Assembly (NCBI GenBank): GCA_964456945.1
Contig: CAYWDA010000007.1
Coordinates: 1 to 36,882, forward strand
From: an uncultured Syntrophomonadaceae bacterium
GTDB lineage: Bacteria > Bacillota > Dethiobacteria > DTU022
Reading direction: 5' to 3'
Length of the DNA: 36,882 nt
Positions 4,112 through 36,816 of the stretch are shown one piece after another. The notes under the pieces are model-generated. The model saw nothing but the letters and a program-made list of their open reading frames with translations. It was not told the origin of the DNA and ran no database searches. A program made the translations under genes and the position numbers. The first letter of the stretch is position 1; every line of letters begins with the position of its first letter.

Positions 4112-4140
4112 CTTTTGGAAAAGAGAGGGGAGCGTTGGTT

Positions 4141-4668
4141 ATGAAAGGCAAATCAGATAGCGAGAGGGAAGAGATTATCAAGGCTGTATACCAGCGGGGC
4201 TTTGAACTCGAGCAGCGCTACTACGGTTGTGCACAATGTGTGGTTGCTTCTATTCAGGACTTTTTCCCGATGAACAGTGCCTTATTTAAGGCGGCTACAT
4301 CATTTTCCGGCGGATTTGCTTCCACCATCGAAGGTCCCTGCGGCGCCCTGACCGGGGGAATCATCGTCCTTAGTAATTTTTTCGGTCGTTCGAGAGAAGA
4401 TTATGCCAATATCGGCTTGCTGCGCCGCCCGGGGCCACTGGTTCGGGTTTACTGGGATCGTTTTATTAAAACTTATGGCGGTGACACCTGCCGGCAGGTT
4501 CAGAATCATCTTTTCGGTAAAGCATATCATTTTCTGGATAATGATGAGTACTGCGAGTATGAAGAGTTAGGCGGACATCGTGATAAGTGTCCGGCAGTCG
4601 TTGGGCAGGCTGGAGCCTGGCTTGCTGAGTTACTGCTTGATAATAATATTCCCTGCAAAAAAATATAA
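4141..4668 (+). CDS. C_GCAxxG_C_C family putative redox-active protein
   Basis: YYGCAQCVVAS matches the GCAxxG core, and there are additional Cys residues (GPCGAL, DTCRQV, DKCP). ATG 4141 has SD GGGGAG 8 nt upstream. The ORF-track TTG at 4135 sits too close to the SD. Confidence 0.65.
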   Translation: MKGKSDSEREEIIKAVYQRGFELEQRYYGCAQCVVASIQDFFPMNSALFKAATSFSGGFASTIEGPCGALTGGIIVLSNFFGRSREDYANIGLLRRPGPLVRVYWDRFIKTYGGDTCRQVQNHLFGKAYHFLDNDEYCEYEELGGHRDKCPAVVGQAGAWLAELLLDNNIPCKKI

Positions 4669-17904: not shown

Positions 17905-18000
17905 TCTTTAATATAAAGTTGTTAGAAAGAAGGATAATCGGTTGCGATAGTCGAATTAATATGCTCAATTCTAAAAATTTCATTTATGGAGGGATACCCA

Positions 18001-18501
18001 TTGCATAGTATTCGGGTGGCAGCAAAAATCATTATCGGCTTTCTCTTTTCTATGACGATTTTAATGACCTTTCTGGTTACCTCATTATTCGGGGTGAAAG
18101 CAGAGGATACTGTGCGCATTATAGTCACTGAAGCTACAGGGCTGCAGCGTGAAATGGTCATCTTTTATGCCGATCTTCAGCCGATGATCTTTCATGGTGT
18201 TTTCTGGCTCTGTCTGGCAACTTTTGGTTTTATGCTCATCTTTCTCTACTTTATAGATCATAGTTTCAGCGGCTTCATTGCCCCGGGTATGCTTTGCCTG
18301 GTAATCACAATTTTCCTGGTGGTTATGCTTGCTGTATCAAAAGACCATCTTTTCCTTTTTACCGGTCCGGCAACAGATCTATATATTCAAAGCGCCCTTG
18401 ATCGCTTTAGCCAGTCGGCTTACGGCATGACTGCCTTCGGCCTGGTCTTACTGGCCGCTTCGCAATGGGGTGATCGTCTTTTTAAAAAGAATCCAAAATA
18501 A
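18001..18501 (+). CDS. Small integral membrane protein, unknown function
   Basis: About four hydrophobic helices are visible (IIIGFLFSMTILMTFLVTSLF, VFWLCLATFGFMLIFLYFI, MLCLVITIFLVVMLAV, AFGLVLLAA). TTG 18001 lies 7 nt after GGAGGG. The ORF-track ATG 17986 overlaps that SD. Confidence 0.5.
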   Translation: MHSIRVAAKIIIGFLFSMTILMTFLVTSLFGVKAEDTVRIIVTEATGLQREMVIFYADLQPMIFHGVFWLCLATFGFMLIFLYFIDHSFSGFIAPGMLCLVITIFLVVMLAVSKDHLFLFTGPATDLYIQSALDRFSQSAYGMTAFGLVLLAASQWGDRLFKKNPK

Positions 18502-20662: not shown

Positions 20663-21733
20663 TTGAAAATACTGCATACAGCAGATTTGCATTTAACCGA
20701 AAAAGCCCCTGAGCGTTGGGAAGCCTTGGCACAAATAGTAGCTCTTGCCCGCATGCATCAAGTTTCAGCCCTGCTTATTGCCGGTGACCTGTTTGACCAT
20801 AATGTTGAAGCTGATAAACTGCGCCCCAGGCTGCGTGCAGTTCTTGCCGGGGCCGGTTTTCAAACGATTGTATTACCAGGCAACCACGATCATAAAGCGT
20901 ATCGCAGTGGTCTTTATTTTGGTGATAATGTAACAGTAATCAGCAGTTGTTCAGAGCCTGTGCGGTTCGGTGATCTGACTATATGGGGCTTGCCCTACGA
21001 AAAAATTAGCGGGGAAGATCTCGTTGGGTGCCTGCGCAGCATGGGAGCGCTTATGAACCCGAATGAGTACAATATCCTGCTCTATCACGGTGAATTGCTT
21101 GATGCCTATTTTTCCCGGCAGGAACTTGGCGATGAAGGTGATCAGCGCTATATGCCCGCCAGATTGTCATATTTTGAGCAGATGCCCCTGCAATATGTTT
21201 TAGCAGGGCATTTTCACTCCCGGTATTCCGAATGGCAGCTGCCAGGTGGCGGTCTTTTCATTTATCCTGGATCACCGGTGGCTGTAACCAGGCGCGAGAC
21301 AGGCAGGCGTGTAATAAATTTGCTTGACCTTGATAGTGCGCCGGTTGAAATACCCCTGGATAGCTACCATTATGAAGCAATAACCTTAGATCTTGATCCG
21401 TTCAGTGCAGCCGATCCGTTATTGCTTCTTGAGCAGCGTCTGCAGGGTATTCATTCAAAGGCAAAAGTACTCCTTACCGTGCAGGGCCTTTTTAACGGTT
21501 CAGCGCTCGGTATGCATGAGAGTGAACTCGCTTCCGCACTGCGTGAAAAAGCGCAAGACCGTCTGACTGGTGAACCGGTGGAAAACTTTTATGATGTACA
21601 GCATGTTCTGGAAGACGATCTCTTCAGGCAGTTTAAAACAAGGCTGGCTGAAAAGGACTGTTCTCCTGAGCAGATGGAGCAGGTCACTGAGATGGCCATT
21701 CGCGCTTTCAGGGTGGTGAAAGCATGTTCCTGA
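20663..21733 (+). CDS. SbcD/Mre11-like calcineurin-fold metallophosphoesterase (DNA repair exonuclease family, YhaO-like)
   Basis: Phosphoesterase motifs are present: MKILHTADLHL (motif I), LLIAGDLFD (II), LPGNHD (III) and AGHFH. It starts at TTG after AAAGGAG and overlaps the next gene by 10 nt. Confidence 0.8.
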   Translation: MKILHTADLHLTEKAPERWEALAQIVALARMHQVSALLIAGDLFDHNVEADKLRPRLRAVLAGAGFQTIVLPGNHDHKAYRSGLYFGDNVTVISSCSEPVRFGDLTIWGLPYEKISGEDLVGCLRSMGALMNPNEYNILLYHGELLDAYFSRQELGDEGDQRYMPARLSYFEQMPLQYVLAGHFHSRYSEWQLPGGGLFIYPGSPVAVTRRETGRRVINLLDLDSAPVEIPLDSYHYEAITLDLDPFSAADPLLLLEQRLQGIHSKAKVLLTVQGLFNGSALGMHESELASALREKAQDRLTGEPVENFYDVQHVLEDDLFRQFKTRLAEKDCSPEQMEQVTEMAIRAFRVVKACS

Positions 21734-24063
21734 AAGAATTCGCAATCAGGCGCTATGGCCCACTGCCGGATTCCGGCAAGCGGGTATTGGGAGCGTTTAA
21801 CCTCTTTTACGGGCCGAACGAAGAAGGGAAAACGCTGACTATAGATGCCATCCTGAAAATACTTTTTGGAAAAAGCGCAGCCCGCTATTTTGGCGAAATC
21901 AAAAGGGTGGAAGAAAACCCGGAAGGTTACCTGGTAATTGGGGAAAATAGCAACAAAGAAACTGTTCTTCCCGCAGAGGGTAATATTAACGAGCTTTTTG
22001 GTTATAGTATCGCTGAATTCAGTAATATCTTCATTATTCGCGACAGCGATCTGACCATTAACGATGAAGGCGATTTTTACCGCGGAATTACCGGCCGTCT
22101 GACCGGTATGCGCAGCGACGAGATCGCTAATATTAAAGACAGCCTCTGTGACCTGGGACGTATTACAGCGAGCGGTGAATATCAGAATACAGCGCCCCAT
22201 AAGTTAAAGGATCGCATCAGAAAAGTACAGGCCCTGCTTGCTAAGATTGATCCGCTTTCGGCTCGCCTGCTGGAAGAAGGTTTCAGCAACTTTGAAGAAG
22301 AACTGGCTAGCCTTGAGGCAGAGCAAAGTGAAACGGTAAATAAACTAAGCGATTTAAGGGCTGCGGCCAACCGCGATCGTTATTGCAAAGGCCGCGAGGT
22401 CTTAATAAAGCTGCAAGAAGCGCTTGCCTTTCTTGACGGACTTAAAACCTATAAGCGGGCTGACTATGAAGCCTGGCAGCGCGCTGAATTAAGCCTTGAA
22501 CATTTTGAGGATGATCACAGTCAGCTAAAAAGGGAAAACATTGAAAAGCAGGCAGCGCTGACTGTGGTGCGTAACGCTAAAAAAGAGCAGGAAATTGCTT
22601 ATAAATTAGCTGATAACAGGTTAAAAACTGCCCGGGAAAAAATTGAACCGCTGCTGGATGCTCATGATCCAGAGGAGGCCCTTGCCCTGAAAAGTGAGGT
22701 CTTTATTAATAACCCATATTACAACAGGGGTATTGTTCTGGTCGGACTCATTTTATTGATTTCGCTGGTCAGCGCTATTTTGCGCCCGTCCTGGTGGCTA
22801 TTTATTTTTCTCTCAGTCTCAGCGCTTCTGACACTGCTGGCGGGCTGGTTTCGTTATAATCTACTAGCCAGGCAAAGTCGGTTGGCCATAATCAGGGCAA
22901 AGACTTTCAGGGAGGCAGATATGTTGGGCCTTCCCGGTGGTGACATAGTTAAGCTCCGCGCCGCCCTGGGGCAATTAAATGTTGAAGCAGAGCTTCAAAG
23001 CGAGATGTTAAGTGAAGCTGAAAAAGAAGTCGAATGGCAGCAGAAAGAAGTTGATCGCCTAAACGCTGAGCTTAGAGATAAACTACAGCGCATTGCAGCC
23101 GTTAAAGAGCAGATTAACGAAATTAAGCTTACGCTGCAGCTTGATGCACTCGCTGATTTCGCAGCGCTTCTTAAAAGAAAAGATCAACTTGAAAACGACG
23201 TAGACAGGCAGGTAAGTATACTGGAGAGCCATTTTGAGCAGAAAGGCAATCTACTCTCACTTGAAAGACAGATTGATCTCTTTGCAGAACAGGTCGAAGA
23301 ATTGGCCTCCTACGCTCCGGCTGCACCGGGTGTAAAATTTGACCAATCTATCCTGAATAAACTTAATGAGAACCGCCAAAAGTTTGAAACGGCGATCAAG
23401 ATAATGCAGGAAAAGATGAAGGATAGCTCTGAAGAACTGCGCAACATAGAAAAAGAGGTCAATGAACTGCTTCATCTTGACAAGGAAGGTCATCTGCCCT
23501 GTCAGACCACACTTGACCTGGAAATGATTGGTAAACGCTTGCAAGATTGGCTTGATTGCCTTGAGACAGAAAGAAAAGCCGCCCTGCTTTCCCTCGAGAT
23601 TTTTAGCGAAATGGAGGAAGCGGAAGAGCAGAAAGTATCCGCTCTCTTCGGGCAAAACAGCCTGGTCAGCAAGTATTTTAGCATCATTACAAACGGGCGC
23701 TACAAAGAGGTTTGCTTCGACAGCAGGGATAACCCGATAAAAACTGTCCGCGCTGACGGCACAGCACTAAATGCTGCCAGTCTTTCCGGTGGTGCCTACG
23801 ACCAGCTCTATTTTGCAATCAGGCTGGCTCTCGGTGAGAAACTGCTTGAAGGAGAAAAGGGTTTTTTCATCCTTGACGATCCCTTTATCAAGGCCGATCC
23901 GGTGCGCTTACAAGCTCTTTTAAGCATGCTTTTTGAAATCTGCGCCAGCGGTTGGCAGATTCTCTACTTTAGTTCAAAGGGTGAAATTAAAGAGGCCCTA
24001 AATCACAAAATATCTGCAGGGGACGTATTAGAGTTCTCCATCAAACTGAACGACAGTAAATAA
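21724..24063 (+). CDS. SbcC/Rad50-like AAA/ABC-type ATPase with long coiled coils and a central two-helix membrane hairpin (YhaN-like)
   Basis: Walker A is FYGPNEEGKT (residues about 28-37). The C-terminal ABC signature is LSGGAYDQLYFAIRLALG and Walker B is FFILDDPF. Heptad-rich Glu/Lys/Leu segments flank two hydrophobic helices at residues about 336-376 (nt 22729-22851). There is no CxxC zinc hook. Confidence 0.8.
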   Translation: MFLKEFAIRRYGPLPDSGKRVLGAFNLFYGPNEEGKTLTIDAILKILFGKSAARYFGEIKRVEENPEGYLVIGENSNKETVLPAEGNINELFGYSIAEFSNIFIIRDSDLTINDEGDFYRGITGRLTGMRSDEIANIKDSLCDLGRITASGEYQNTAPHKLKDRIRKVQALLAKIDPLSARLLEEGFSNFEEELASLEAEQSETVNKLSDLRAAANRDRYCKGREVLIKLQEALAFLDGLKTYKRADYEAWQRAELSLEHFEDDHSQLKRENIEKQAALTVVRNAKKEQEIAYKLADNRLKTAREKIEPLLDAHDPEEALALKSEVFINNPYYNRGIVLVGLILLISLVSAILRPSWWLFIFLSVSALLTLLAGWFRYNLLARQSRLAIIRAKTFREADMLGLPGGDIVKLRAALGQLNVEAELQSEMLSEAEKEVEWQQKEVDRLNAELRDKLQRIAAVKEQINEIKLTLQLDALADFAALLKRKDQLENDVDRQVSILESHFEQKGNLLSLERQIDLFAEQVEELASYAPAAPGVKFDQSILNKLNENRQKFETAIKIMQEKMKDSSEELRNIEKEVNELLHLDKEGHLPCQTTLDLEMIGKRLQDWLDCLETERKAALLSLEIFSEMEEAEEQKVSALFGQNSLVSKYFSIITNGRYKEVCFDSRDNPIKTVRADGTALNAASLSGGAYDQLYFAIRLALGEKLLEGEKGFFILDDPFIKADPVRLQALLSMLFEICASGWQILYFSSKGEIKEALNHKISAGDVLEFSIKLNDSK

Positions 24064-25609: not shown

Positions 25610-25639
25610 TTGCCAAGCGCCTTTTTAACTTGTTATAAT
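25610..25639 (+). promoter_or_regulatory. Sigma-A-type promoter with extended -10 upstream of selA
   Basis: TTGCCA (25610-25615) is separated by 18 nt from TATAAT (25634-25639), which is preceded by TG (TGTTATAAT). It lies 25 nt upstream of the selA start. Confidence 0.6.
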
Positions 25640-25664: not shown

Positions 25665-27080
25665 GTGACTGATTTTCAGGCATTACTCAGGGAATTACCG
25701 GCGGTTGACCGCCTGCTGCGTGAACCGTTGCTGGATGATTTGGCGACCCGCCTGCCTCGCCGGGTAATTCTGCAGGCGGTTCAGGAAACGATCAACCTTT
25801 ACCGCAGTAGTATTAATGAACATAAATCAGATCCCCTAAAACTTGATCAGCTAAACCTTTCCCCGCTATCAATGGCTATGGAGGCGGCCTCGCTTGCCGA
25901 AAAACGGGCCGGGTCAAGTCTTAAACCGCTGATTAACGCTACGGGAATCGTGATTCACACCAATTTAGGGCGTGCCCCTCTGGCCGGATCTGCCGTTGAA
26001 GCACTATCAGCAGTTGCTGCAAACTACAACAATCTTGAGCTTTCGCTCGATGACGGAAAACGCGGATCACGCCAGGAGCACTTAGAAGCGCTGCTCTGTG
26101 AACTAAGCGGCGCTGAAGCAGCCATTACCCTGAATAACAACGCAGCGGCTGTCTTTTTAGCGTTGAAGGCACTGACGGACGGCCGTGAAGTAGTTGTTTC
26201 ACGCGGCCAGCTTGTAGAAATCGGTGGTTCATTCCGCATTCCCGAAATTATGGCGGCCAGCGGCGCTCACCTGGTTGAAGTGGGAACGACCAATAAAACA
26301 TATTTGCGTGACTACGAAAATGCGCTCACTGAAAACAGTGCCGCTTTTCTCAAGGTTCATAGCAGCAACTATCATATGGTAGGCTTTACCGCTGAAGTCA
26401 ATGTGGCCGACCTTGCAGCTCTTGCTCATAAACATAACCTGCTGGTGATCGAAGACCTTGGCAGTGGAGTTTTACTCGATCTTGAAAAATATGGTCTTCC
26501 CGCTGAGCCTCGCGTGCAGGACAGCATCGCTGCCGGAGTTGATCTGGTAACGTTCAGCGGTGATAAAATGCTCGGCGGACCCCAGGCCGGAATTATCGTC
26601 GGGCGCAAAGAACTGGTTGCCAGAATTCGAACCAACCAACTGGCCAGGGCGCTGCGTGTCGACAAATTCACTATCTCCGCCCTTGAAGCGACTCTTCGTC
26701 TCTACCTTGATGAAGAAAGAGCAATCAGCGAAATACCCGTGTGGCGCATGCTTACCGTCGACAATGAAGCCCTTCGAAAGCGCGCGCAGAATATTGCTAA
26801 CCGCTTCGAAGAAACATTTGGCGCAGACGCAATTTCAATTATGCAAGGCATCTCAAAGGTTGGCGGTGGCGCACTGCCCACAGCCGAACTGCCTACTTTT
26901 CTGGTTGGCATCAAGCTGCAGGAAGGCAGCCCTGAAGCGCTGGTTGAAAAACTACGTGCCGGAGACCCACCGGTAATCCTCCGCCTCCAGCAGGATACCC
27001 TGCTCTTTGACCCGCGCACCATCTTTGTAGAACAGGAAGACTCCCTGATTGAAGCTATAAGAACAGCTTACAAGGGTTAG
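25665..27080 (+). CDS. selA: L-seryl-tRNA(Sec) selenium transferase
   Basis: Matches include LRELPAVDRLL at the N-terminus, INATGIVIHTNLGRAPL, and the PLP-lysine motif FSGDKMLGGPQAGIIVG. The start is GTG after AAAGGTGAGG. Confidence 0.93.
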   Translation: MTDFQALLRELPAVDRLLREPLLDDLATRLPRRVILQAVQETINLYRSSINEHKSDPLKLDQLNLSPLSMAMEAASLAEKRAGSSLKPLINATGIVIHTNLGRAPLAGSAVEALSAVAANYNNLELSLDDGKRGSRQEHLEALLCELSGAEAAITLNNNAAAVFLALKALTDGREVVVSRGQLVEIGGSFRIPEIMAASGAHLVEVGTTNKTYLRDYENALTENSAAFLKVHSSNYHMVGFTAEVNVADLAALAHKHNLLVIEDLGSGVLLDLEKYGLPAEPRVQDSIAAGVDLVTFSGDKMLGGPQAGIIVGRKELVARIRTNQLARALRVDKFTISALEATLRLYLDEERAISEIPVWRMLTVDNEALRKRAQNIANRFEETFGADAISIMQGISKVGGGALPTAELPTFLVGIKLQEGSPEALVEKLRAGDPPVILRLQQDTLLFDPRTIFVEQEDSLIEAIRTAYKG

Positions 27081-27112
27081 CAGGTTATAGTTTGCATAGA
27101 GGAGCTGTCAGG

Positions 27113-29020
27113 TTGGAACAACTAATTATAGGCACAGCCGGCCATGTCGATCACGGCAAAACAGTGCTGATCAAAGCGCTTACCGGCGTTGATACTGATC
27201 GCCTGCAGGAAGAGAAAGAACGGGGCATTTCAATTGATCTCGGCTTCGCTCCCTTCAGGTTGCCCAGTGGCAGATTAGCCGGTGTTGTCGACGTGCCCGG
27301 TCACGAACGCTTCATCCATAATATGCTCGCCGGCGCTGCCGGAATGGATCTGGTTATGCTTGTTGTCGACGCAGTCGAAGGAGTTATGCCCCAGACCCGT
27401 GAACATCTCGATATTTTGCAGATCCTGGGCGTACAAAATGGCCTGGTAGTAATCACCAAGATTGACCTGGTAGAAGAAGAGTGGCGTGAAATGGTCCAGG
27501 AAGAGATCCGCGAAGAACTGACCGGTTCATTTCTCGAAAATGCTCCGATTATTGCTGTTTCGGCAATAAAAGGCGAAGGCATTGACGAACTTAAAACTCT
27601 GATTGATGATATGACTGCTGTTCTTGTTTCACGCAGTTCATCGGGCCCGCTGCGTCTTCCTGTTGACCGGTCTTTTGTTATTTCTGGCTTCGGTACTGTG
27701 ATTACCGGCACCCTGATTCAGGGCTCGGTGCACGTTGGTGAAACTGTGGCCATAGTGCCCCCTGGTCTTGAAGCGAGGGTGCGCAACGTTCAGGTGCACG
27801 ATGATGATGTTAAAGAAGCAAAGGCCGGGGCCAGGGTTGCTTTAAACCTTTCCGGCCTTGAGCGGGACGAAGTGCTGCGCGGCAGTGTTATCAGCACCCC
27901 CGGCTACTACCGGCAGACGGACCTGCTTGATGTTTCTGTAGAACTGCTGGCTCGCGCACCACGGCGCATTAAAAACCTTGATCCGGTACACTTCTTCCTG
28001 GGTACTGCCAGGGTTGTAGCCAGGCTGCTGCTTCTCGACCGCGACGAACTGAAACCGGGAGAAAGCTGCCCGGCCCAGTGCCGCCTTGACCGTCCCCTTG
28101 TAGCTGAGCGAGGCGATCCCTTTGTAATACGTTCTTACTCCCCGATGACCACTATCGGTGGTGGAAAAGTTTTAGATCCCTATCCGTCAAGGCACCGACG
28201 CTTTCGCAATGAAGTAATTGACCGTCTAAGCGAGCTGAAGCAAGATCCGACAGCAGGAGGCGATTCCGCTTTTGTCCGCCGCACTCTTGAAGAACTGGTA
28301 GCCGCCGATGCAGTTCGGCTGGCAAAAGAGACGCGCCTCGATCAAGAAAAAATCAATGCTATCCTCGAAGAACTTGTTGAGGCGGGCATGATTGAAAAAG
28401 TCGGCAGTTCGTATATCATTACTAAAATTTTGCACGAACTTGAAGCAAAACTGCAATCTGAACTGGAAAAATTTCACCAGAAATATCCGCTTTCGCCCGG
28501 CATTTCCCGTGCCCAGCTGAAGAGTTTTCTGCCTGGTTCATTCAATCAACGCGACTACGATGCCCTGCTTGAACGCCTGCAGAAAAGTGAAAAAGTTATG
28601 GCGAAAGGCGATCTTGTCACCCTGCACGGCTTTAAACCAGAGCCGGCGGCAAAAGACAGGCAGCAGCTCGACAAATTGGCAGAATTATATCGGGCAGGTT
28701 GGCTCCAGCCACCCTCTGTGCGCGATGCACTCGAGAAAGCCGGTTCAAACCCCGCCCGTAAAGATGAACTCTACACATTTTTAGTTAGCACAGGTATACT
28801 AATTAAATTAAACGAAGACCTCTATTACCACAGCGATGCCTACAACGAAGCGCTAAAGCTGCTGCACAGCCACTTCGCCGCAGAGAAACAGCTAACTTTG
28901 GCTCAATTTCGCGATATCACCGGCAGTTCCCGCAAATACGTCCAGGCTCTGCTTGAACACTTCGACCAGCTTAAACTAACTAAACGCGTTGAAGACCACC
29001 GCGTGGCTTTCAAACTTTAG
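27113..29020 (+). CDS. selB: Selenocysteine-specific translation elongation factor
   Basis: The G-domain motifs are [21 protein letters not shown] and TKIDL. A long C-terminal extension of winged-helix-like repeats is typical of bacterial SelB. TTG 27113 (8 nt after AGAGGAG) is preferred over the ORF-track TTG 27092. Confidence 0.9.
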
Positions 29021-29071
29021 GCTTTTTGAATAAGAAAGATAACAGCAGGCAAGTGAAAGGAAGGTGAAGAA

Positions 29072-30121
29072 ATGAGCCGCGACGAAATTCGCCTTACAAC
29101 ATTGACTGCCAGCGCCGGCTGAGCAGCAAAAATCGGGCCTGAGGCCCTGGCGCAGGTTCTGCGCCGTTTGCCCAAGTTTGACAACCCTGATTTTCTGAAT
29201 CGTGAACAGCATTTTTCCGATGCCGGCATTTATCGCATTTCTGCTACCCAGGCCCTCGTTCAGACGGTCGATTTCTTCACGCCCATTGTCGACGACCCTT
29301 ATACCTTCGGCCAGATAGCGGCAGCAAACTCACTAAGTGATGTTTATGCCATGGGTGGGAAACCTTTAACTGCCCTTAATATCATCTGTTTTCCGGTATC
29401 CTGTCAACCGCTTGAAGTGATGGAAGCTATTTTACACGGCGGTTACGATAAAGTAATTGAAGCGGGAGCAGTCGTTGTCGGAGGGCACAGCATTGAAGAT
29501 CCCGAACCTAAGTACGGTCTTTCCGTTACCGGCCTGGTCGAAATTGATCAGTTGATTACCAGCCACGGCGCCAAACCAGGTGATATTCTCGTCCTCACCA
29601 AGCCGCTCGGTACGGGCATAATTGCCACTGCGCTTAAAGGTGGTATGATTGCTGAAAAAGACGCAGTTGAAGCAGTCAGGGGTATGTCCCAGCTTAACGC
29701 TGCAGCTTCAGAAACAATGAGCGAAGTTGGCGTTACTGCCTGCACTGATGTAACCGGCTTCAGTCTACTCGGGCACCTCCGCGAAATGTTGATCACCAGC
29801 GCTGTTTCAGCCGAGATAGATTATCAAAAAGTTCCACTTTACCCGGCAGTAACCGAGATGATGGCCATGGGCATGATTCCTGCCGGAGCCTATCGCAACT
29901 TAGAATATATTCGGCCTCATGTAGACTGGCAGGGCAGCCCTGAGGCAAAAGAAGATGCACTAATTATTATGGCCGACCCCCAGACATCGGGAGGCCTGCT
30001 GGTAGCCCTGTCCCCGGAAAAAGTCGATCCTTACCTTGCCCTGCTAAACGAAAAAGGCACTGCCGGCCACCCGATCGGCCAAATTAGCGCTGACCAGGCA
30101 GGCAGAATAGTGATCAGGTAA
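29072..30121 (+). CDS. selD: Selenide, water dikinase (selenophosphate synthetase), selenocysteine-containing form; UGA at 29120-29122 decoded as Sec
   Basis: ATG 29072 follows SD AAGGAAGGTG. Translation gives MSRDEIRLTTLTASAG-U-AAKIGPEALAQVL, in frame with the tracked ORF at 29168. This aligns with E. coli SelD IRLTQYSHGAGCGCKISP, so Sec17 corresponds to Cys17 and Lys20 is conserved. Downstream motifs include DFFTPIVDDPYTFGQIAAANSLSDVYAMGGKP. Confidence 0.88.
29135..29165 (+). promoter_or_regulatory. Candidate bacterial SECIS region: two tandem hairpins downstream of the selD UGA
   Basis: Hairpin A pairs GGGCC (29135-29139) with GGCCC (29143-29147) and starts 12 nt after the UGA. Hairpin B pairs GGCGCAG (29149-29155) with CTGCGCC (29159-29165) around loop GUU. 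Confidence 0.5.
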
Positions 30122-30401
30122 AACCCTGTCAGGGCAAATTATCCGCCTTATAGTCGTTCCATAGGTTAATAGTTTCCCAGGGAAAATATTAAAGAATTTA
30201 AAAGTGAAGCAGGATAAATTAAAGGAAATGTCGAAATCCTCTAATATAGCCTGCTTTTATCGCAATTGTCCAACTATTCGTTACCATTGTAAAGGGAGGT
30301 GATCAGAAGGAACAGTTGTTTTATTTATTAATCCGGCAGACTGAATTATATTGCCGGGAAGCTTACTGTAAAACAATTTCTTTATGATGCGGGGTATGCT
30401 A

Positions 30402-31538
30402 ATGAGTACCGAAATCCAGACATTCACCGAAAAATATGATCTGCTTGGTTGTATCCAGTGTGGTCGCTGTACCGGTGGTTGCCCGGTTACCGTGCGGGCC
30501 GACCTGAATGTGCGCCGCTTTGTCAATGACGCCTACCATGAAGAAAAACTGGAAGAGTTGGCCAAACTGGCAGAGATCTGGGATTGCACGGCATGCCATA
30601 CCTGTGCTGTCCGCTGCCCCAAAGGTCTGAAACCACTGGAAGTTTTGCTTGGTTTGCGGGCAATGATTGTTGAAAGTGGCAAGGTTGAGCCTACTGTTCG
30701 CGATGCGCTGCAAAGTGTTCTACTTGAAGGAAACCCCTGGGAAAAATCGCGGGCAGCACGCAGCGATTGGATGGAGGGCCTTGACGTAAAAATCGCTGAA
30801 CCGGGTGTACCGGTCGAGAATCTCTTTTTTGTCTGCTGCACCATTGCTTATGATCCCCGGGTCCAGACGATTGCCAAGAACATGGTTAAGATTCTCAATA
30901 AAGCTGGTATCGATTATGCCTTTTTGGATGACAGTGAGAGCTGCTGCGGCAGCGAAGTATACACTCTTGGCGAAGAAGGCCTTTTCGAAATGCTTGTTGA
31001 AGACAATACCGAATACTTAAATGAATACTCCGCTCAGCGGATTGTTACCCTCTCTCCACACTGTTTTACCACTTACAAAACCCAATATCCGGATTTAAAA
31101 GCTCCGGTTTTGCACTACACCCAGCTATTAGATTTGCTGCTTAAAGAAGGCAAGCTAACCTGGAAGGGTGAATTGGGCAAAAAAATTGTCTTTCATGATC
31201 CCTGTTACCTTGGTAAACAGGGCGATGTTTACGACGAACCACGAAATCTGTTAAAGAATATTCCCGGTGCTGAACTGCTTGAATTTGATCGTTGCCGTGA
31301 GCGCAGCCTCTGCTGTGAAGGTGGTGGAGGGAAAATGTGGGTTGAATCACTGTCGAAGAAGGAAAGGCTTGCTGATACACGGATTAAAGATGCCAGGGCT
31401 CTCGGTGCTGATATCGTTGCAGTGGCTTGCCCCTTCTGCGTGTTGACCCTCGAAGATGCTATGAAAGGTCTCGGTTTTGAAGAAGAGATGCGCGTAGCCG
31501 AAATTATGGAACTTTTAGGAGAATTTGTAGAAGCATAA
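30402..31538 (+). CDS. HdrD/GlcF-like iron-sulfur protein: two [4Fe-4S] ferredoxin motifs plus two CCG domains; soluble
   Basis: The ferredoxin motifs are CIQCGRCTGGCP and CTACHTCAVRCP. CCG domain 1 reads FFVCC...SESCCGSE...SPHCFTT. CCG domain 2 reads HDPCYLG...LCCEGGGG...ACPFCVLT. No hydrophobic helices are visible. ATG 30402 was chosen (GGGG 7 nt upstream); the ORF opens at 30384. Confidence 0.8.
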   Translation: MSTEIQTFTEKYDLLGCIQCGRCTGGCPVTVRADLNVRRFVNDAYHEEKLEELAKLAEIWDCTACHTCAVRCPKGLKPLEVLLGLRAMIVESGKVEPTVRDALQSVLLEGNPWEKSRAARSDWMEGLDVKIAEPGVPVENLFFVCCTIAYDPRVQTIAKNMVKILNKAGIDYAFLDDSESCCGSEVYTLGEEGLFEMLVEDNTEYLNEYSAQRIVTLSPHCFTTYKTQYPDLKAPVLHYTQLLDLLLKEGKLTWKGELGKKIVFHDPCYLGKQGDVYDEPRNLLKNIPGAELLEFDRCRERSLCCEGGGGKMWVESLSKKERLADTRIKDARALGADIVAVACPFCVLTLEDAMKGLGFEEEMRVAEIMELLGEFVEA

Positions 31539-31574
31539 GCCTGTTTTATATTTATGTAGGAGGTGGAAAGAACA

Positions 31575-32363
31575 ATGAAAACTGTAGTTTGTATCAAGTA
31601 TGTGCCCGATACTTCCGAAGCGGAAGTAAAAGTAAACCCCGATGGCATAACAGTTGATGACAGTCGTTTTTCTTTCGATATTAACGATGCCGACAATTAT
31701 GCTGTTGAAGAATCAGTTCTGATTAAAGAAGCACAGGGCGGTGAAATTACCGTTGTCTCTATCGGGCCCAAAAAGTCGGATGTCATGATTCGTATGGCTA
31801 TGGCTAAAGGCTGTGACAAAGCCGTGCGTGTTGAAGATGAAAGAATTGCCGGCTATGACCCGCTAATGGTGGCTAAAGTGCTTGCCGGAGCTGTTAAAGG
31901 CGAAGAATTTGACCTGGTGTTGACCGGCTGTATGGCCAGTGATGACGGCCACATGTCAACCGGAGTAGCTTTGGCCGAAGAACTCGGAGTCAGCCATGCT
32001 TCAATGGTCAAAAAGGTGGAAGTGCTTGATGGCAAAGTGAGAGCTCACCGTGAACTCGAAGGCGGACTGATGGAAGTGGTTGAGATTGAACTTCCTGCAG
32101 TTTTAACCATCCAGACCGGTATCAATGAACCACGCTATGCTCCTATTCGCGGTATTCGCGAAGCACAGAAGAAAGAGCTAAAAGTGGTTAAACTTGAAGA
32201 TATTGCTGTTGATCCGGCATCCGTCGGAACTGATGCTTCACAGATTGTCCTGGAAACGCTCTATATTCCCGAAGTAGTTTCTTCTGCGGAATTTATTGAG
32301 GGCGAGCCGGACGAAAAAGCAGAAAAACTGGCGTCCATACTGGTTAAAGGAGGCTTGGTATAA
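31575..32363 (+). CDS. etfB: Electron transfer flavoprotein beta subunit
   Basis: The protein starts MKTVVCIKYVPDT and includes DLVLTGCMASDDGHMSTG and PRYAPIRGI. ATG 31575 lies 9 nt after AGGAGGTG. Confidence 0.9.
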   Translation: MKTVVCIKYVPDTSEAEVKVNPDGITVDDSRFSFDINDADNYAVEESVLIKEAQGGEITVVSIGPKKSDVMIRMAMAKGCDKAVRVEDERIAGYDPLMVAKVLAGAVKGEEFDLVLTGCMASDDGHMSTGVALAEELGVSHASMVKKVEVLDGKVRAHRELEGGLMEVVEIELPAVLTIQTGINEPRYAPIRGIREAQKKELKVVKLEDIAVDPASVGTDASQIVLETLYIPEVVSSAEFIEGEPDEKAEKLASILVKGGLV

Positions 32364-33337
32364 TGGGTAACGTTTTAGTTTTGGCTGAACACCGTCAGGG
32401 ATCTCTCAGGGATATCTCTTTTGAAATGCTTGCTGTTGCCCCGAAACTGGCTGCCGATATGGGCGGCGAAGCTGTTGGATTGCTGATCGGCAGCGGTATG
32501 GATGATATGGCCGCAAAAGTTGCTTCTTACGGGGTAAAAGTTCTGGTTGTTGACGACCCGCTCTTCGCAGATTTTAATGCTGATAAATACCAAAAAGTAT
32601 TAGCGGCGCTGATTGATGATCTTAAACCATCAGTGCTGATGACCGGTCACACCTCACAGGGTGTTGACTTTATGCCGGCCCTTGCTGTTGAGAAAAAGCT
32701 GCCCCTGGTAGCCGAAGCGGTCGGTCTGGAATTCGCCGGCGGAACCCTTAAGGCGACCCGCCAGCTATACTCGGGCAAAGTAAATGCCACCCTGGCTTTC
32801 AAGCCGGCAGATACCTACCTGGTGACCTTCAGGGAGGGCGCAGTTGAAGCTCCCGCACCCTCATCTGCAGGTGCAGTAGAGAAAGTTGATTCGCCCCTGA
32901 AGGAAGATCTTGCCTACCGTAAGTTCGTTGAATATATTGAAGCCGAAGTTGGCGATGTTGATATTACCCAGTCTGACATTTTAGTTTCTGTCGGTCGCGG
33001 CTTAAAAGAAGATAAGAACCTTGCTATAATCGAAGAACTGGCTAAGGCAATTAAAGCTGATATTGCCGGTTCGCGGGCAGCGACCGATGCCGGTTGGATA
33101 CCTCATGACCGTCAGGTCGGTACTTCCGGAAAAGCGGTTAAACCGAAACTCTATATTGCTATGGGTATTTCCGGCGCTTTCCAGCACGTTGCCGGTATGA
33201 AAGGCGCGAAGACAGTAGTAGCCATCAACAAAGATCCCGAAGCTCCGATCTTTGCCGTGGCCGACTATGCCATTGTCGACGACATGTTCAAGATTGTGCC
33301 CAAGCTGACCGAGAAGCTGAAAGAACTTAAAGGATAG
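32363..33337 (+). CDS. etfA: Electron transfer flavoprotein alpha subunit
   Basis: The C-terminal FAD-binding region reads VGRGL...[43 protein letters not shown]...[13 protein letters not shown]. The start overlaps the etfB stop (TAATG). There is no N-terminal ferredoxin domain. Confidence 0.9.
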
Positions 33338-33393
33338 TCAAAGTCAGCAGATCACAATTAAGGGTCAATCTTTGCGGGAGGATGAAAAACCAG

Positions 33394-35394
33394 ATGACGG
33401 AAAAACCAAAAGTGGGTGTCTACGTTTGCCACTGCGGAATTAACATTTCCGCAACGGTAGATGTGGATGCGGTTGCAGAATATGCGCAGACACTGCCCAA
33501 TGTGGCAGTGGCGCGCACCTATTCCTACATGTGTTCCGATCCCGGCCAGGCTCTGATCAGGAATGATATTCAGGAACAGGGCTTAAACCGGGTTGTTGTA
33601 GCTTCCTGCTCCCCCCGTATGCATGAACCAACCTTCAGAAAGGCGATCAAGAGCGCCGGGGTTAACCCCTACTTTCTTGAGATGGCCAACATCAGGGAGC
33701 ATTGCTCCTGGGTGCATGAAGATAAGGATGATGCTACGGCCAAAGCAAAAAAACTGGTTAAAGCTTCGGTGGCCAAAGTGCGACTGCTTGAAGCTCTTGA
33801 ATCAAAAGAGGTCGACTGCGAACCGGCAGCCCTGGTTATCGGGGCTGGTATTGCCGGTATCCAGGCCGCCCTTGATATTGCCGACGCCGGGTTCCAGGTC
33901 TACCTGGTTGAAAAGACTCCCTCCGTCGGCGGGCGTATGGCCCAACTGGACAAAACCTTTCCAACGCTTGACTGCTCGGCCTGTATTTTAACACCGAAGA
34001 TGGTCGACTGTGCCAACCACCCGAATATCGAACTCTTGAGCTACTCTGAGGTAGAAGAGATCAAAGGGTTTATTGGCAATTTTGATGTCAAGGTACGCAA
34101 AAAAGCGCGCTATGTTGATTTCGATAAATGCACCGGCTGCGGAGACTGTGCTTCTGAATGCCGGGTCAAGGACCGCATTCCCAGCGAGTTCGACATGGGT
34201 ATGGGTAAGCGTTCAGCAGTCTACCTGCCCTTCCCCCAGGCTGTTCCGGCCAAGTATACTATTGATCCGAAGAGCTGCCTTTTTCTGACCAAGGGGAAAT
34301 GCGGCAAAGCGCCGAAATGCCAGGAAGTCTGTCGCGCTGAAGCCATTAACTTCGACCAGGTGGACGAGATCGTCGAGTTTAAAGTCGGGGCAGTTATCGT
34401 TGCTACCGGTTTTGATCCCTTTGATGCATCACGCAAGCCGGAATACGGCTACAGTGACTATCCGAATGTGATCACCGGGATGGAGATGGAACGCCTCGTT
34501 TCAGCCTCGGGGCCAACCGGCGGCAAAGTTAAGGTTTTTAACGGTGAGGAAGAAATTGAACCGAAAGAAGTTGCTTTTATTAAGTGTGTCGGTTCCCGGG
34601 ATGCCAGCGTCGGTAATGAATACTGCTCCAGGGTCTGCTGCATGTATGTGGCAAAACAGGCCCACCTGGTCAGAGATAAGATGCCTGATGCCAACATTCG
34701 GGTTTACTACATGGATGTAAGAGCTTTCGGTAAAGGTTTCGAGGAATTCTATGACCGCGTGCGCCGCGAAAATGTTCGCTATATCCGCGGTAATCCTTCC
34801 GAGATCTTCAAACGGGGCAATAAACTGGTGGTTAAAGTTGAAGATACGCTTACCGCTACCCCTCTCGAAGACGAAGTCGATCTGGTTGTGTTGGGTGTCG
34901 GTCTTGAACCGCGTGCCGACATGCGTGAAGTTATGGATTTGCTCAGGCTTTCGCAGTCACCTGATCGTTTCTTCCTGGAAGCACACCCGAAACTGCGGCC
35001 CGTTGATACGGCAACCGATGGTGTTTTCCTCGCCGGATGCTGCCAGGGTCCGAAAGATATTCCCGATACGGTAGCCCAGGCCAAGGGAGCTGCCTCTTCG
35101 GCCATGATTCCACTGGCTCGCGGTAAGGTATTAATCAGCGCCCAGGTAGCCACTGTTAATGAGGCAACCTGCCGGGGTTGTGGTTTCTGCGTCAATATTT
35201 GCCCCTACACAGCCATTGAGCTGGTCACTGTCAACCGTTTCGGAAACGAGGTTGAAGTAGCCAGGGTCAACGAGGCTCTCTGTAAAGGTTGCGGTTCATG
35301 TTCAGCTGCCTGTCTCTCAGACTCAATTCAGCCGAAATCGTTCCGTGACCGCCAGATCCTACCGCAGATAGCGGCATTGGGGGTATTGAAATGA
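33394..35394 (+). CDS. hdrA: Heterodisulfide reductase subunit A-like FAD/FeS protein (Cys form)
   Basis: The N-terminal Cys cluster is VGVYVCHCGINIS ... ASCSPRMHE. The FAD fold is ALVIGAGIAGIQAALDIADAG. Other motifs are CTGCGDCASEC and CSRVCC, and the C-terminal 2x[4Fe-4S] reads CRGCGFCVNICP / CKGCGSCSAAC. ATG 33394 is preferred, because ATG 33382 abuts the SD GGGAGG directly. Confidence 0.88.
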   Translation: MTEKPKVGVYVCHCGINISATVDVDAVAEYAQTLPNVAVARTYSYMCSDPGQALIRNDIQEQGLNRVVVASCSPRMHEPTFRKAIKSAGVNPYFLEMANIREHCSWVHEDKDDATAKAKKLVKASVAKVRLLEALESKEVDCEPAALVIGAGIAGIQAALDIADAGFQVYLVEKTPSVGGRMAQLDKTFPTLDCSACILTPKMVDCANHPNIELLSYSEVEEIKGFIGNFDVKVRKKARYVDFDKCTGCGDCASECRVKDRIPSEFDMGMGKRSAVYLPFPQAVPAKYTIDPKSCLFLTKGKCGKAPKCQEVCRAEAINFDQVDEIVEFKVGAVIVATGFDPFDASRKPEYGYSDYPNVITGMEMERLVSASGPTGGKVKVFNGEEEIEPKEVAFIKCVGSRDASVGNEYCSRVCCMYVAKQAHLVRDKMPDANIRVYYMDVRAFGKGFEEFYDRVRRENVRYIRGNPSEIFKRGNKLVVKVEDTLTATPLEDEVDLVVLGVGLEPRADMREVMDLLRLSQSPDRFFLEAHPKLRPVDTATDGVFLAGCCQGPKDIPDTVAQAKGAASSAMIPLARGKVLISAQVATVNEATCRGCGFCVNICPYTAIELVTVNRFGNEVEVARVNEALCKGCGSCSAACLSDSIQPKSFRDRQILPQIAALGVLK

Positions 35395-35822
35395 GTAAAG
35401 ATTACGAACCAAATATCGTAGCCTTCCTCTGCAATTGGTGCTCCTATGCCGGAGCAGACCTGGCCGGAACAAGCCGGGTTCAGTACCCGGCCAATATCCA
35501 GGTAATCAGGGTAATGTGTTCGGGGCGTGTTAACCCGCTCTATGTTATGAATGCGCTGCAGCAGGGCGCAGACGGCGTACTTGTCTCAGGCTGCCACCCC
35601 GGTGACTGCCACTACATGGAAGGTAACTTCTATGCCCGGCGTCGCTTAGGTATTCTTAAAGACCTGATGGAGTATGTCGGGGTTGATCCCAAACGCTTTC
35701 ATATGAGTTGGGTGTCGGCATCCGAAGGGCACAAATGGAAGGAAGTAGTCGAAAAAACCGTCGAAGATGCAAGGGAAGCCGGACCGTTTGAAGGTTTCAG
35801 GCGCCGGCAGATCGACTGGTAG
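35391..35822 (+). CDS. mvhD: MvhD/FlxD-like [2Fe-2S] protein (methyl-viologen-reducing hydrogenase delta subunit family)
   Basis: Matches include IVAFLCNWCSYAGADLAG, IRVMCSGRV and GADGVLVSGCHPGDCHY. There is an ATGA start/stop overlap with hdrA. Confidence 0.88.
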   Translation: MSKDYEPNIVAFLCNWCSYAGADLAGTSRVQYPANIQVIRVMCSGRVNPLYVMNALQQGADGVLVSGCHPGDCHYMEGNFYARRRLGILKDLMEYVGVDPKRFHMSWVSASEGHKWKEVVEKTVEDAREAGPFEGFRRRQIDW

Positions 35823-35835
35823 GAGGGTTATTTAG

Positions 35836-36816
35836 ATGGATCTGGAACAATTACGCAAAACCGCGGCAGAGGTAGTGGCTCGTGATGATGTTAAGTACCT
35901 GATCGGTTGGAAACAAGGTACTTATGGCTACCGGGTCGCGCCGAGTTTTGTTGAAGATGCCGCCGGCGCTGCAGAGCTGATCTTTTCACCCCTCTGCACC
36001 GCCAACCTGGCCACCTATCTGACCCTGGTGGAAAAACCGCCGGTGCCACGTGGGCAGGAAGCTGACAGCCGCAAAGTCGCTCTTTTGGTTAAAGGGTGTG
36101 ACAGTCGGGCTGTAACCCAGTTGATTGTTGAAAAAGGTATTCACCGTGACCAGGTTGTTATTATCGGCTGCCCCTGCCCGGGGATGGTTGATCCTGCCCT
36201 GCTCGCAGAAAAGTATCCGGAAAGCGAAGCTGCCGCAGAAGTAGCATGGAACGGTGACGGTTTTACCATAATTAAAAGTGGCGAAGAAGTTAAAGTGGCC
36301 AGGGAAGAACTGCTGGCAGAAAAATGCCGTCTTTGCCGTTACCCCAATCCGGTAATCAGTGATATTATGCTTGGCGAAGCAGTTGAACCCTGGGAAACAT
36401 CCGAAGATAGCGGCGTGGCCGAGCTTGAAGCTAAGGATGTTGACGGCCGCGCAGCTTACTGGGAGGAGCAGTTTGCAAAGTGTGTGCGCTGTTATAGTTG
36501 TCGTAACGTTTGCCCTCTCTGCTACTGCCAGGACTGCATTCTTGATCGCCTTAACCCGACATGGGTAAATCGAGCAGTCAACTTTTCCGAGAATACAGCT
36601 TTTAATATTGCCCGGGCTTTTCACCTGGCCGGACGTTGTATAGAGTGCGGTGAGTGTGAGCGGGTTTGCCCGGCCAATATTCCCCTGGGTAAGTTAAATC
36701 GCAAACTGGCCCGGGAAGTGCGGGATAAATACGGTTTCGAACCGGGAGTAGATCCCGAGGGCGAGCCGTTCCAGGCCAGCTTTAAGCCTGATGATCCCGA
36801 GGACTTCATACTGTAG
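35836..36816 (+). CDS. Iron-sulfur protein, FlxC / sulfhydrogenase-beta (HydB)-like
   Basis: Cys clusters are GCPCPG, CRLCRYPNP, CVRCYSCRNVCPLCYC and CIECGECERVCP. It sits directly after the mvhD-like gene, as in flx-hdr loci. The family assignment rests on context and Cys pattern only. Confidence 0.5.
   Translation: MDLEQLRKTAAEVVARDDVKYLIGWKQGTYGYRVAPSFVEDAAGAAELIFSPLCTANLATYLTLVEKPPVPRGQEADSRKVALLVKGCDSRAVTQLIVEKGIHRDQVVIIGCPCPGMVDPALLAEKYPESEAAAEVAWNGDGFTIIKSGEEVKVAREELLAEKCRLCRYPNPVISDIMLGEAVEPWETSEDSGVAELEAKDVDGRAAYWEEQFAKCVRCYSCRNVCPLCYCQDCILDRLNPTWVNRAVNFSENTAFNIARAFHLAGRCIECGECERVCPANIPLGKLNRKLAREVRDKYGFEPGVDPEGEPFQASFKPDDPEDFIL

Follow-up and report, generated by a model that had tools for sequence, protein, structure and literature searches.

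A selD gene with an in-frame UGA that very probably encodes selenocysteine in an uncultured Syntrophomonadaceae bacterium

The selD gene of an uncultured Syntrophomonadaceae bacterium raises the question whether a UGA codon close to its 5' end terminates translation or is read as selenocysteine (Sec). The window, by which we mean the whole stretch of DNA that was analysed, measures 36,882 bp with a G+C content of 48.8% and represents an entire contig of a metagenome-assembled genome; the contig is present in aquatic and freshwater-sediment metagenomes of 2015-2016 and in a metatranscriptome of 2024. A mechanical list of open reading frames (ORFs) placed the gene at 29168-30121. For this contig, the only SelD entry among public proteins is the same truncated call of 317 residues; the full-length sequence, with X in place of Sec, is absent there. 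A sequence-only reading of the window had proposed instead that selD starts at an ATG at 29072 and contains an in-frame UGA at 29120-29122 that the ORF list had missed.

The complete frame extended on the plus strand from the ATG at 29072-29074 to the TAA at 30119-30121, comprising 349 codons plus the stop, and was open throughout apart from the TGA at 29120-29122, which is codon 17. Its translation, MSRDEIRLTTLTASAG-UGA-AAKIGPEALAQVLRRLPKF..., matched the previously proposed peptide exactly, and the frame was conserved in related genomes. The proposed start was borne out as well. A Shine-Dalgarno-like AAGGTG was read from the sequence at 29061-29066 on the plus strand, 5 nt 5' of the ATG, and in the six closest relatives an ATG or GTG start codon was found at the same place, followed by the same N-terminal peptide. 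The relatives thus begin at the counterpart of 29072 and not at that of 29168, and the upstream part of the frame is conserved in them. The mechanical ORF does begin at 29168, as had been stated, but its first codon is not an internal Met: the plus-strand triplet at 29168-29170, from which both the ORF list and the public 317-residue call start, is TTG and corresponds to Leu33 of the full protein. In the 96 nt that lie outside the tracked ORF (29072-29167), substitutions with respect to the six closest relatives were distributed over the three codon positions as 25:11:71, and the other two frames contained stops in nearly all of the seven sequences (the window and these six relatives). By this pattern the 5' segment is real coding sequence.

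The gene product was assigned to the SelD family by the equivalog model TIGR00476 (370.9 bits for the whole protein, cut-off 125) and by NF002098 (331 bits, cut-off 299). It showed the two AIR-synthase-like domains AIRS (PF00586, residues 49-156) and AIRS_C (PF02769, residues 168-347), and end-to-end matches were obtained with the solved structures of A. aeolicus SelD (2yye, E = 4e-72) and E. coli SelD (3u0o, E = 6e-71). By homology, the encoded protein is selenide, water dikinase (SelD), and the corresponding enzyme activity is predicted. The full frame covered positions 1-310 of TIGR00476 and scored 24 bits more than the truncated ORF, the 317-residue product of which covered positions 35-310 only; the N-terminal 54 residues by themselves matched the profile with E = 2e-6. 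The contention that the tracked ORF lacks the catalytic N-terminus therefore agrees with the first 34 profile positions being absent from it. In the alignments to 3u0o and 2yye, the UGA fell on Cys17 of the E. coli enzyme and on the equivalent Cys of the deposited A. aeolicus sequence, in keeping with the earlier assignment. U17 stood opposite Cys17, and K20, encoded by the AAA at 29129-29131 on the plus strand and representing the conserved Lys of the G-[U/C]-x-x-K loop, stood opposite Lys20; the motifs DFFTPIVDD, SDVYAMGG and TDVTGF were retained.

For a wider comparison, 80 related loci were collected from a scan of one genome per species, and the Sec column was located in each of them by locally aligning the N-terminal region. 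Opposite 29120-29122, 65 of the 80 relatives had TGA and the other 15 a Cys codon (TGT in 10, TGC in 5); no further codon occurred. Such a column is a classical Sec/Cys pair. The G-[U/C]-x-x-K motif, with the catalytic Sec or Cys and the Lys three residues on, was present in 80/80 relatives. The nearest species representatives, which are uncultured Syntrophomonadaceae or Bacillota genomes, shared 70-75% protein identity with the SelD of the window, and the closest relatives all had TGA at the Sec column.

These data bear on an alternative, namely that the UGA is a true stop. In that case selD would have decayed or lost its N-terminus, and translation from an internal start, for example TTG 29168, would give a protein without the catalytic loop. 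Such a gene would agree with two facts: neither the ORF list nor the public proteins include any form but that of 317 residues, and TGA serves as a normal stop elsewhere in the window. Its product, however, would be devoid of profile positions 1-34 and hence of both the essential Sec/Cys and the Lys, and inspection of the sequence ahead of TTG 29168 revealed no Shine-Dalgarno-like motif. In addition, the 48 nt 5' of the UGA are conserved as coding sequence and the start codon is kept in all close relatives, and a TGA confined to one column in 65 species, where it alternates solely with Cys codons, is unlike decay. Together with the restriction of the hairpins described below to TGA-type genes, this makes a true stop extremely unlikely in our estimation. 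A genetic code in which TGA is a sense codon was ruled out, too: the window has 28 long ORFs, four of which terminate with TGA, so that the organism does not generally read it as sense, and the sole internal TGA among the 28 is that of selD. A scan of the window for other recoded genes, in which a TGA would be flanked in frame by long open stretches, yielded nothing convincing.

The codon itself was well supported by independent data. Contigs from four public runs belonging to three studies (three DNA runs and one metatranscriptome) showed TGA at 29120-29122 without any difference. Three of these runs contained a strain variant, which differs by six SNPs at the 3' end of selB, and TGA was still found there. 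The six changes are transitions within 25 nt of selB (28930-28954), five of them at third codon positions, and the selD start region was otherwise identical in the runs that carry this variant. A sequencing or assembly error that turned a TGC or TGT into TGA would have to recur in all these independently assembled contigs, among them the three with the selB variant, none of which has a Cys codon at this site, as well as in the closest relatives; nothing was found in its favour, and we regard it as vanishingly improbable. The contig from the metatranscriptome spans selB into selD and is consistent with co-transcription of the two genes, DNA carry-over being possible in such libraries.

The genes for the Sec machinery were found directly 5' of selD, which is the last gene of a selA-selB-selD cluster. 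The product of selA, L-seryl-tRNA(Sec) selenium transferase (25665-27080, plus strand), reached 598.5 bits with TIGR00474 (cut-off 267.9), and that of selB, the Sec-specific elongation factor (27092-29020, plus strand), reached 377.1 bits with TIGR00475 (cut-off 242). At the C-terminus of SelB, Pfam identified the winged-helix SECIS-binding domains SelB-wing_2 (residues 456-511) and SelB-wing_3 (residues 594-638). A sigma-70-like promoter candidate precedes selA at 25610-25639 on the plus strand (TTGCCA, 18 nt spacer, TG, TATAAT); it is a consensus match only, with 11 of 12 hexamer positions and an extended -10 TG. Between selB and selD no terminator-like site was detected on the plus strand. 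Neither ARAGORN nor Rfam found a tRNA(Sec) gene within the 36.9-kb window and, as the window is the whole of one contig of a metagenome-assembled genome, selC, if encoded, should lie elsewhere in the genome. The gene order selA-selB-selD was found in the six closest relatives, in five of them followed by the same gene for a CCG-domain Fe-S protein. Many remoter Sec-type relatives (loci L011-L017 and others) have the order selD-selA-selB, which shows that the cluster was rearranged between lineages.

The remainder of the window contained several further features. On the 3' side of selD, the region 30384-36816 is occupied by an electron-transfer cluster encoding a CCG-domain Fe-S oxidoreductase (HdrD/TfrB/GlpC-like), EtfB, EtfA, an HdrA-like flavoprotein, MvhD (FlpD) and an FrhB-like Fe-S protein. 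The identity of the CCG-domain protein in the relatives, 85-90%, is above that of SelD. No in-frame TGA is present in the HdrA-like and MvhD genes of the window; both families have Sec forms in S. wolfei. At 20663-24063 the gene for an SbcD/Mre11-like phosphoesterase of 356 residues overlaps the start of an ORF of 779 codons, which gave a weak N-terminal AAA_27 match only, no NCBIfam match, and is possibly a divergent SbcC/Rad50-like partner. Two further ORFs are candidate genes with provisional starts. The ORF at 4135-4668 (177 residues) had no NCBIfam match and is overlapped by the next ORF by about 90 nt, and the ORF at 17986-18501 (171 residues) had no Pfam match and an overlap of about 30 nt with the next ORF.

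If the UGA is read as Sec, a SECIS element is expected behind it, and prediction indeed returned two hairpins on the plus strand. Hairpin H1 (29135-29147, GGGCC-UGA-GGCCC) has 5 bp, a loop 17 nt past the UGA and a folding energy of -9.3 kcal/mol. Hairpin H2 (29149-29165, GGCGCAG-GUU-CUGCGCC) has 7 bp, a loop 33 nt past the UGA and -12.8 kcal/mol. According to the published bacterial SECIS model, the loop has 3-9 nt and the stem 4-16 bp, a G occurs within the first two loop positions, the UGA and the loop are 16-37 nt apart and the MFE is <= -7.5 kcal/mol; N1-G-[G|U]-N-N2 is the preferred loop pattern (PMC13188914). Both hairpins lie within these limits, H2 with a spacing near the far end of the allowed range, and the preferred pattern is fitted by H2 (G-GUU-C) only, the H1 loop UGA deviating from it. 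When compared with shuffles of this G+C-rich stretch, the folding energies gave z = -1.8 and -2.3, by which neither hairpin is strongly distinct. The Rfam scan of the window returned no family at gathering score and no bacterial SECIS family; its matches at 29000-29300 were at chance level (E > 3) and are uninformative on SECIS either way. A terminator-like match on the minus strand (29147-29135) is H1 read backwards beside the Lys-Ile codons and was set aside as coincidence.

More informative was the comparison of the 60 nt from the UGA or Cys codon onwards in gapless alignments of 66 Sec-type and 15 Cys-type sequences. Paired cells amounted to 73% in the Sec-type and 42% in the Cys-type sequences. 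The covariation score of the Sec-type set was 0.271, compared to 0.162 for shuffles, 0/500 of which reached the observed value, and to at most 0.136 for slid partners. For the Cys-type set the score of 0.125 showed no excess, since shuffles gave 0.139, with 379/500 reaching 0.125, and slid partners up to 0.163. With per-sequence criteria in a fixed register (at least 4/5 pairs for H1, at least 6/7 for H2), one or the other hairpin was present in 66/66 Sec-type sequences, namely both in 13, H1 only in 27 and H2 only in 26, whereas neither was found in 14 of the 15 Cys-type sequences, the remaining one having H1 or H2. Fisher's exact test for this association gave 8e-15, a value that ignores relatedness, the Cys-type sequences being apparently drawn from few lineages as judged by organism names. 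The AA at alignment columns 10-11, which belongs to the Lys codon, was invariant in both alignments.

The individual pairs showed how the hairpins are maintained. In H1, pair 18-26 covaries (G-C 18, U-A 17, A-U 5). In H2, changes on both sides were seen in 6/7 pairs; between base 3 of the Gln codon and base 1 of the Leu codon we counted G-C 27, G-U 4, A-U 6 and A-C 0. With G, A, U or C as the wobble base of the Ala27 codon, position 31, four codons on, is Arg, Cys, Ser or Gly, in that order. There is no protein-level reason for linkage between the covarying H2 sites, and the need to keep H2 paired ties the amino acid at position 31 to this wobble base. A lower stem that closes H1 and H2 into a Y shape, taken from the MFE fold (columns 7-11 with 48-52), was rejected, as it was 44% paired and did not covary.

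The loops differ between lineages. An H1 that occurs without H2 has, with few exceptions, a GGA or GGG loop, and lineages with H2 only have a GUN loop. The clade of the window retains H1 and H2, both covarying; here the H1 loop varies (UGA, CGA, GGA, UAA, CAA) and the H2 loop context is always G-GUN-C. Based on the constancy of the one loop and the variability of the other, H2 is more likely the hairpin that binds SelB in this clade, and H1 would be a conserved auxiliary hairpin. In the SelD family, SECIS-like hairpins are thus seen at two alternative places within the same 45 nt. The pair might act as a bipartite or tandem element, an idea that we put forward tentatively and consider rather unlikely. 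H1 could in that case serve as a spacer or pause element at the mRNA entrance while H2 binds SelB. If true, the tandem hairpins could tune the response of selD translation to the supply of Sec-tRNA(Sec) and thereby set the gain of the feedback loop discussed below.

A further possibility is that the ribosome passes the UGA without inserting Sec, by means of near-cognate Trp or Cys tRNAs or of Cys-tRNA(Sec) when selenium is scarce, so that some or all of the protein made would have Cys or Trp at this residue. In E. coli, Sec-UGA is known to be misread as Trp or Cys at a low level, which could bootstrap the loop. SelD enzymes of the Cys type are functional, and 15/80 relatives belong to this type. 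This does not explain, however, why dedicated selA and selB genes adjoin selD, nor why SECIS-type hairpins are under selection, the upkeep of which would be pointless unless Sec were the main product. We consider readthrough with another amino acid very unlikely. We therefore return to Sec: the in-frame UGA at 29120-29122 very probably encodes selenocysteine, with its actual insertion predicted from the conserved codon, the hairpins and the neighbouring genes.

The following sequence of events, which conforms to the established bacterial Sec pathway, would account for the arrangement. SelB, carrying GTP and Sec-tRNA(Sec), would bind the stem-loop in the mRNA through its C-terminal winged-helix domains, the stem-loop being H2 (29149-29165), H1 (29135-29147) or both. 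It would deliver Sec to the A site, and the UGA would be decoded as Sec17 instead of a stop, yielding a selenide, water dikinase of 349 residues. In this enzyme, Sec17 and Lys20, located in a flexible Gly-rich N-terminal loop, would capture selenide and carry it to the ATP site, where selenophosphate would be formed. With selenophosphate, SelA would convert Ser-tRNA(Sec) into Sec-tRNA(Sec). Since SelA needs selenophosphate for this step, the synthesis of SelD would depend on its own product, a positive feedback. The autocatalytic loop that had been postulated for this gene thus follows logically; it is not a new idea, the SelD loop having been a topic of the field from the 1990s on. It might be started by inherited enzyme, by misreading of the UGA at a low level or by a second, Cys-type selD.

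The main value of these results lies in the annotation. The public call of 317 residues, without the catalytic loop, would score as an odd or inactive SelD, and the corrected product has 349 residues with Sec17. The gene would mark this uncultured relative of the Syntrophomonadaceae as a user of selenocysteine, in which the synthesis of the Sec pathway itself is selenium-dependent. The pattern of tandem hairpins offers a small lead for SelB-SECIS recognition and for SECIS prediction. The alternative or tandem pair of hairpins is mildly new; it may already be covered by Inoue et al. 2024, a work cited in PMC13582414 for the variability of SECIS in Sec- and Cys-type SelD.

When compared to known systems, the gene resembles the Sec-containing bacterial SelD of A. 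aeolicus (2yye, 2zod, 2zau), H. influenzae and S. wolfei in family, domain layout and the single Sec position. The motif is SAG-U-AAKIGP in the window and SSG-C-AAKVGP in the deposited A. aeolicus SelD, the native gene of which has Sec where the deposited sequence shows Cys. The SelD of the window appears to differ from these proteins only in the species of origin, and no functional difference is apparent from the sequence. The E. coli enzyme (3u0o) aligns from residue 1 to 344 with residues 1 to 348 of the window's SelD, and Lys20 and the Asp-rich ATP/metal motifs are common to both. The E. coli selD gene, in contrast, has a Cys codon (TGC) at the UGA position, no SECIS, and no linkage to selA-selB.

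The hairpins invite comparison with the SECIS of E. coli fdhF, the reference element of bacteria, which has one hairpin, 11 nt past the UGA, with a GGUC loop and a bulged U. The likeness consists in a stem-loop within coding sequence directly after the UGA, in the apex of H2, GCAG-GUU-CUGC, which resembles the fdhF apex, GCAG-GUC-UGC, and in the start of the H1 loop about 17-18 nt after the UGA, as in fdhF. Unlike the one long bulged helix of fdhF, the window has two adjacent short hairpins with no bulged U evident, and the fdhF-like G-U loop is situated on the distal hairpin, 33 nt from the UGA, compared to about 18 nt in fdhF. The fdhF-type shape, in which one uninterrupted helix carries a bulged U and a G-U loop motif at about 18 nt, was thus not found here, nor was a conserved enclosing stem. 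The element would work like a SECIS but without the shape of that of E. coli fdhF.

In eukaryotes, the selenophosphate synthetase SEPHS2 (SPS2) carries Sec at the corresponding position and likewise depends on its own product (PMC4561486), whereas the eukaryotic SECIS, unlike the hairpins found here, lies in the 3' UTR, forms a kink-turn and is recognised by SBP2 and eEFSec. That Sec-containing SelD occurs in bacteria, as the sequence-only reading had stated, is well documented (PMC1794560, PMC4561486). It ranks as the second most widespread selenoprotein of bacteria. One study counted 38 Sec-SelD sequences and named SelD as one of ten selenoproteins in Syntrophomonas wolfei, a member of the family of the closest named relatives (PMC1794560). 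A 2015 study of SPS reported that 19% of prokaryotic SelD genes encode Sec, and 'always in the same position', and noted that Sec-type genes are routinely misannotated owing to the UGA (PMC4561486), and SelD is described as the second largest prokaryotic selenoprotein family in a 2026 review (PMC13188914). The Sec-type selD of the window is thus an ordinary member of a well-known class, the defining feature of which has long been known and is common in anaerobic bacteria.
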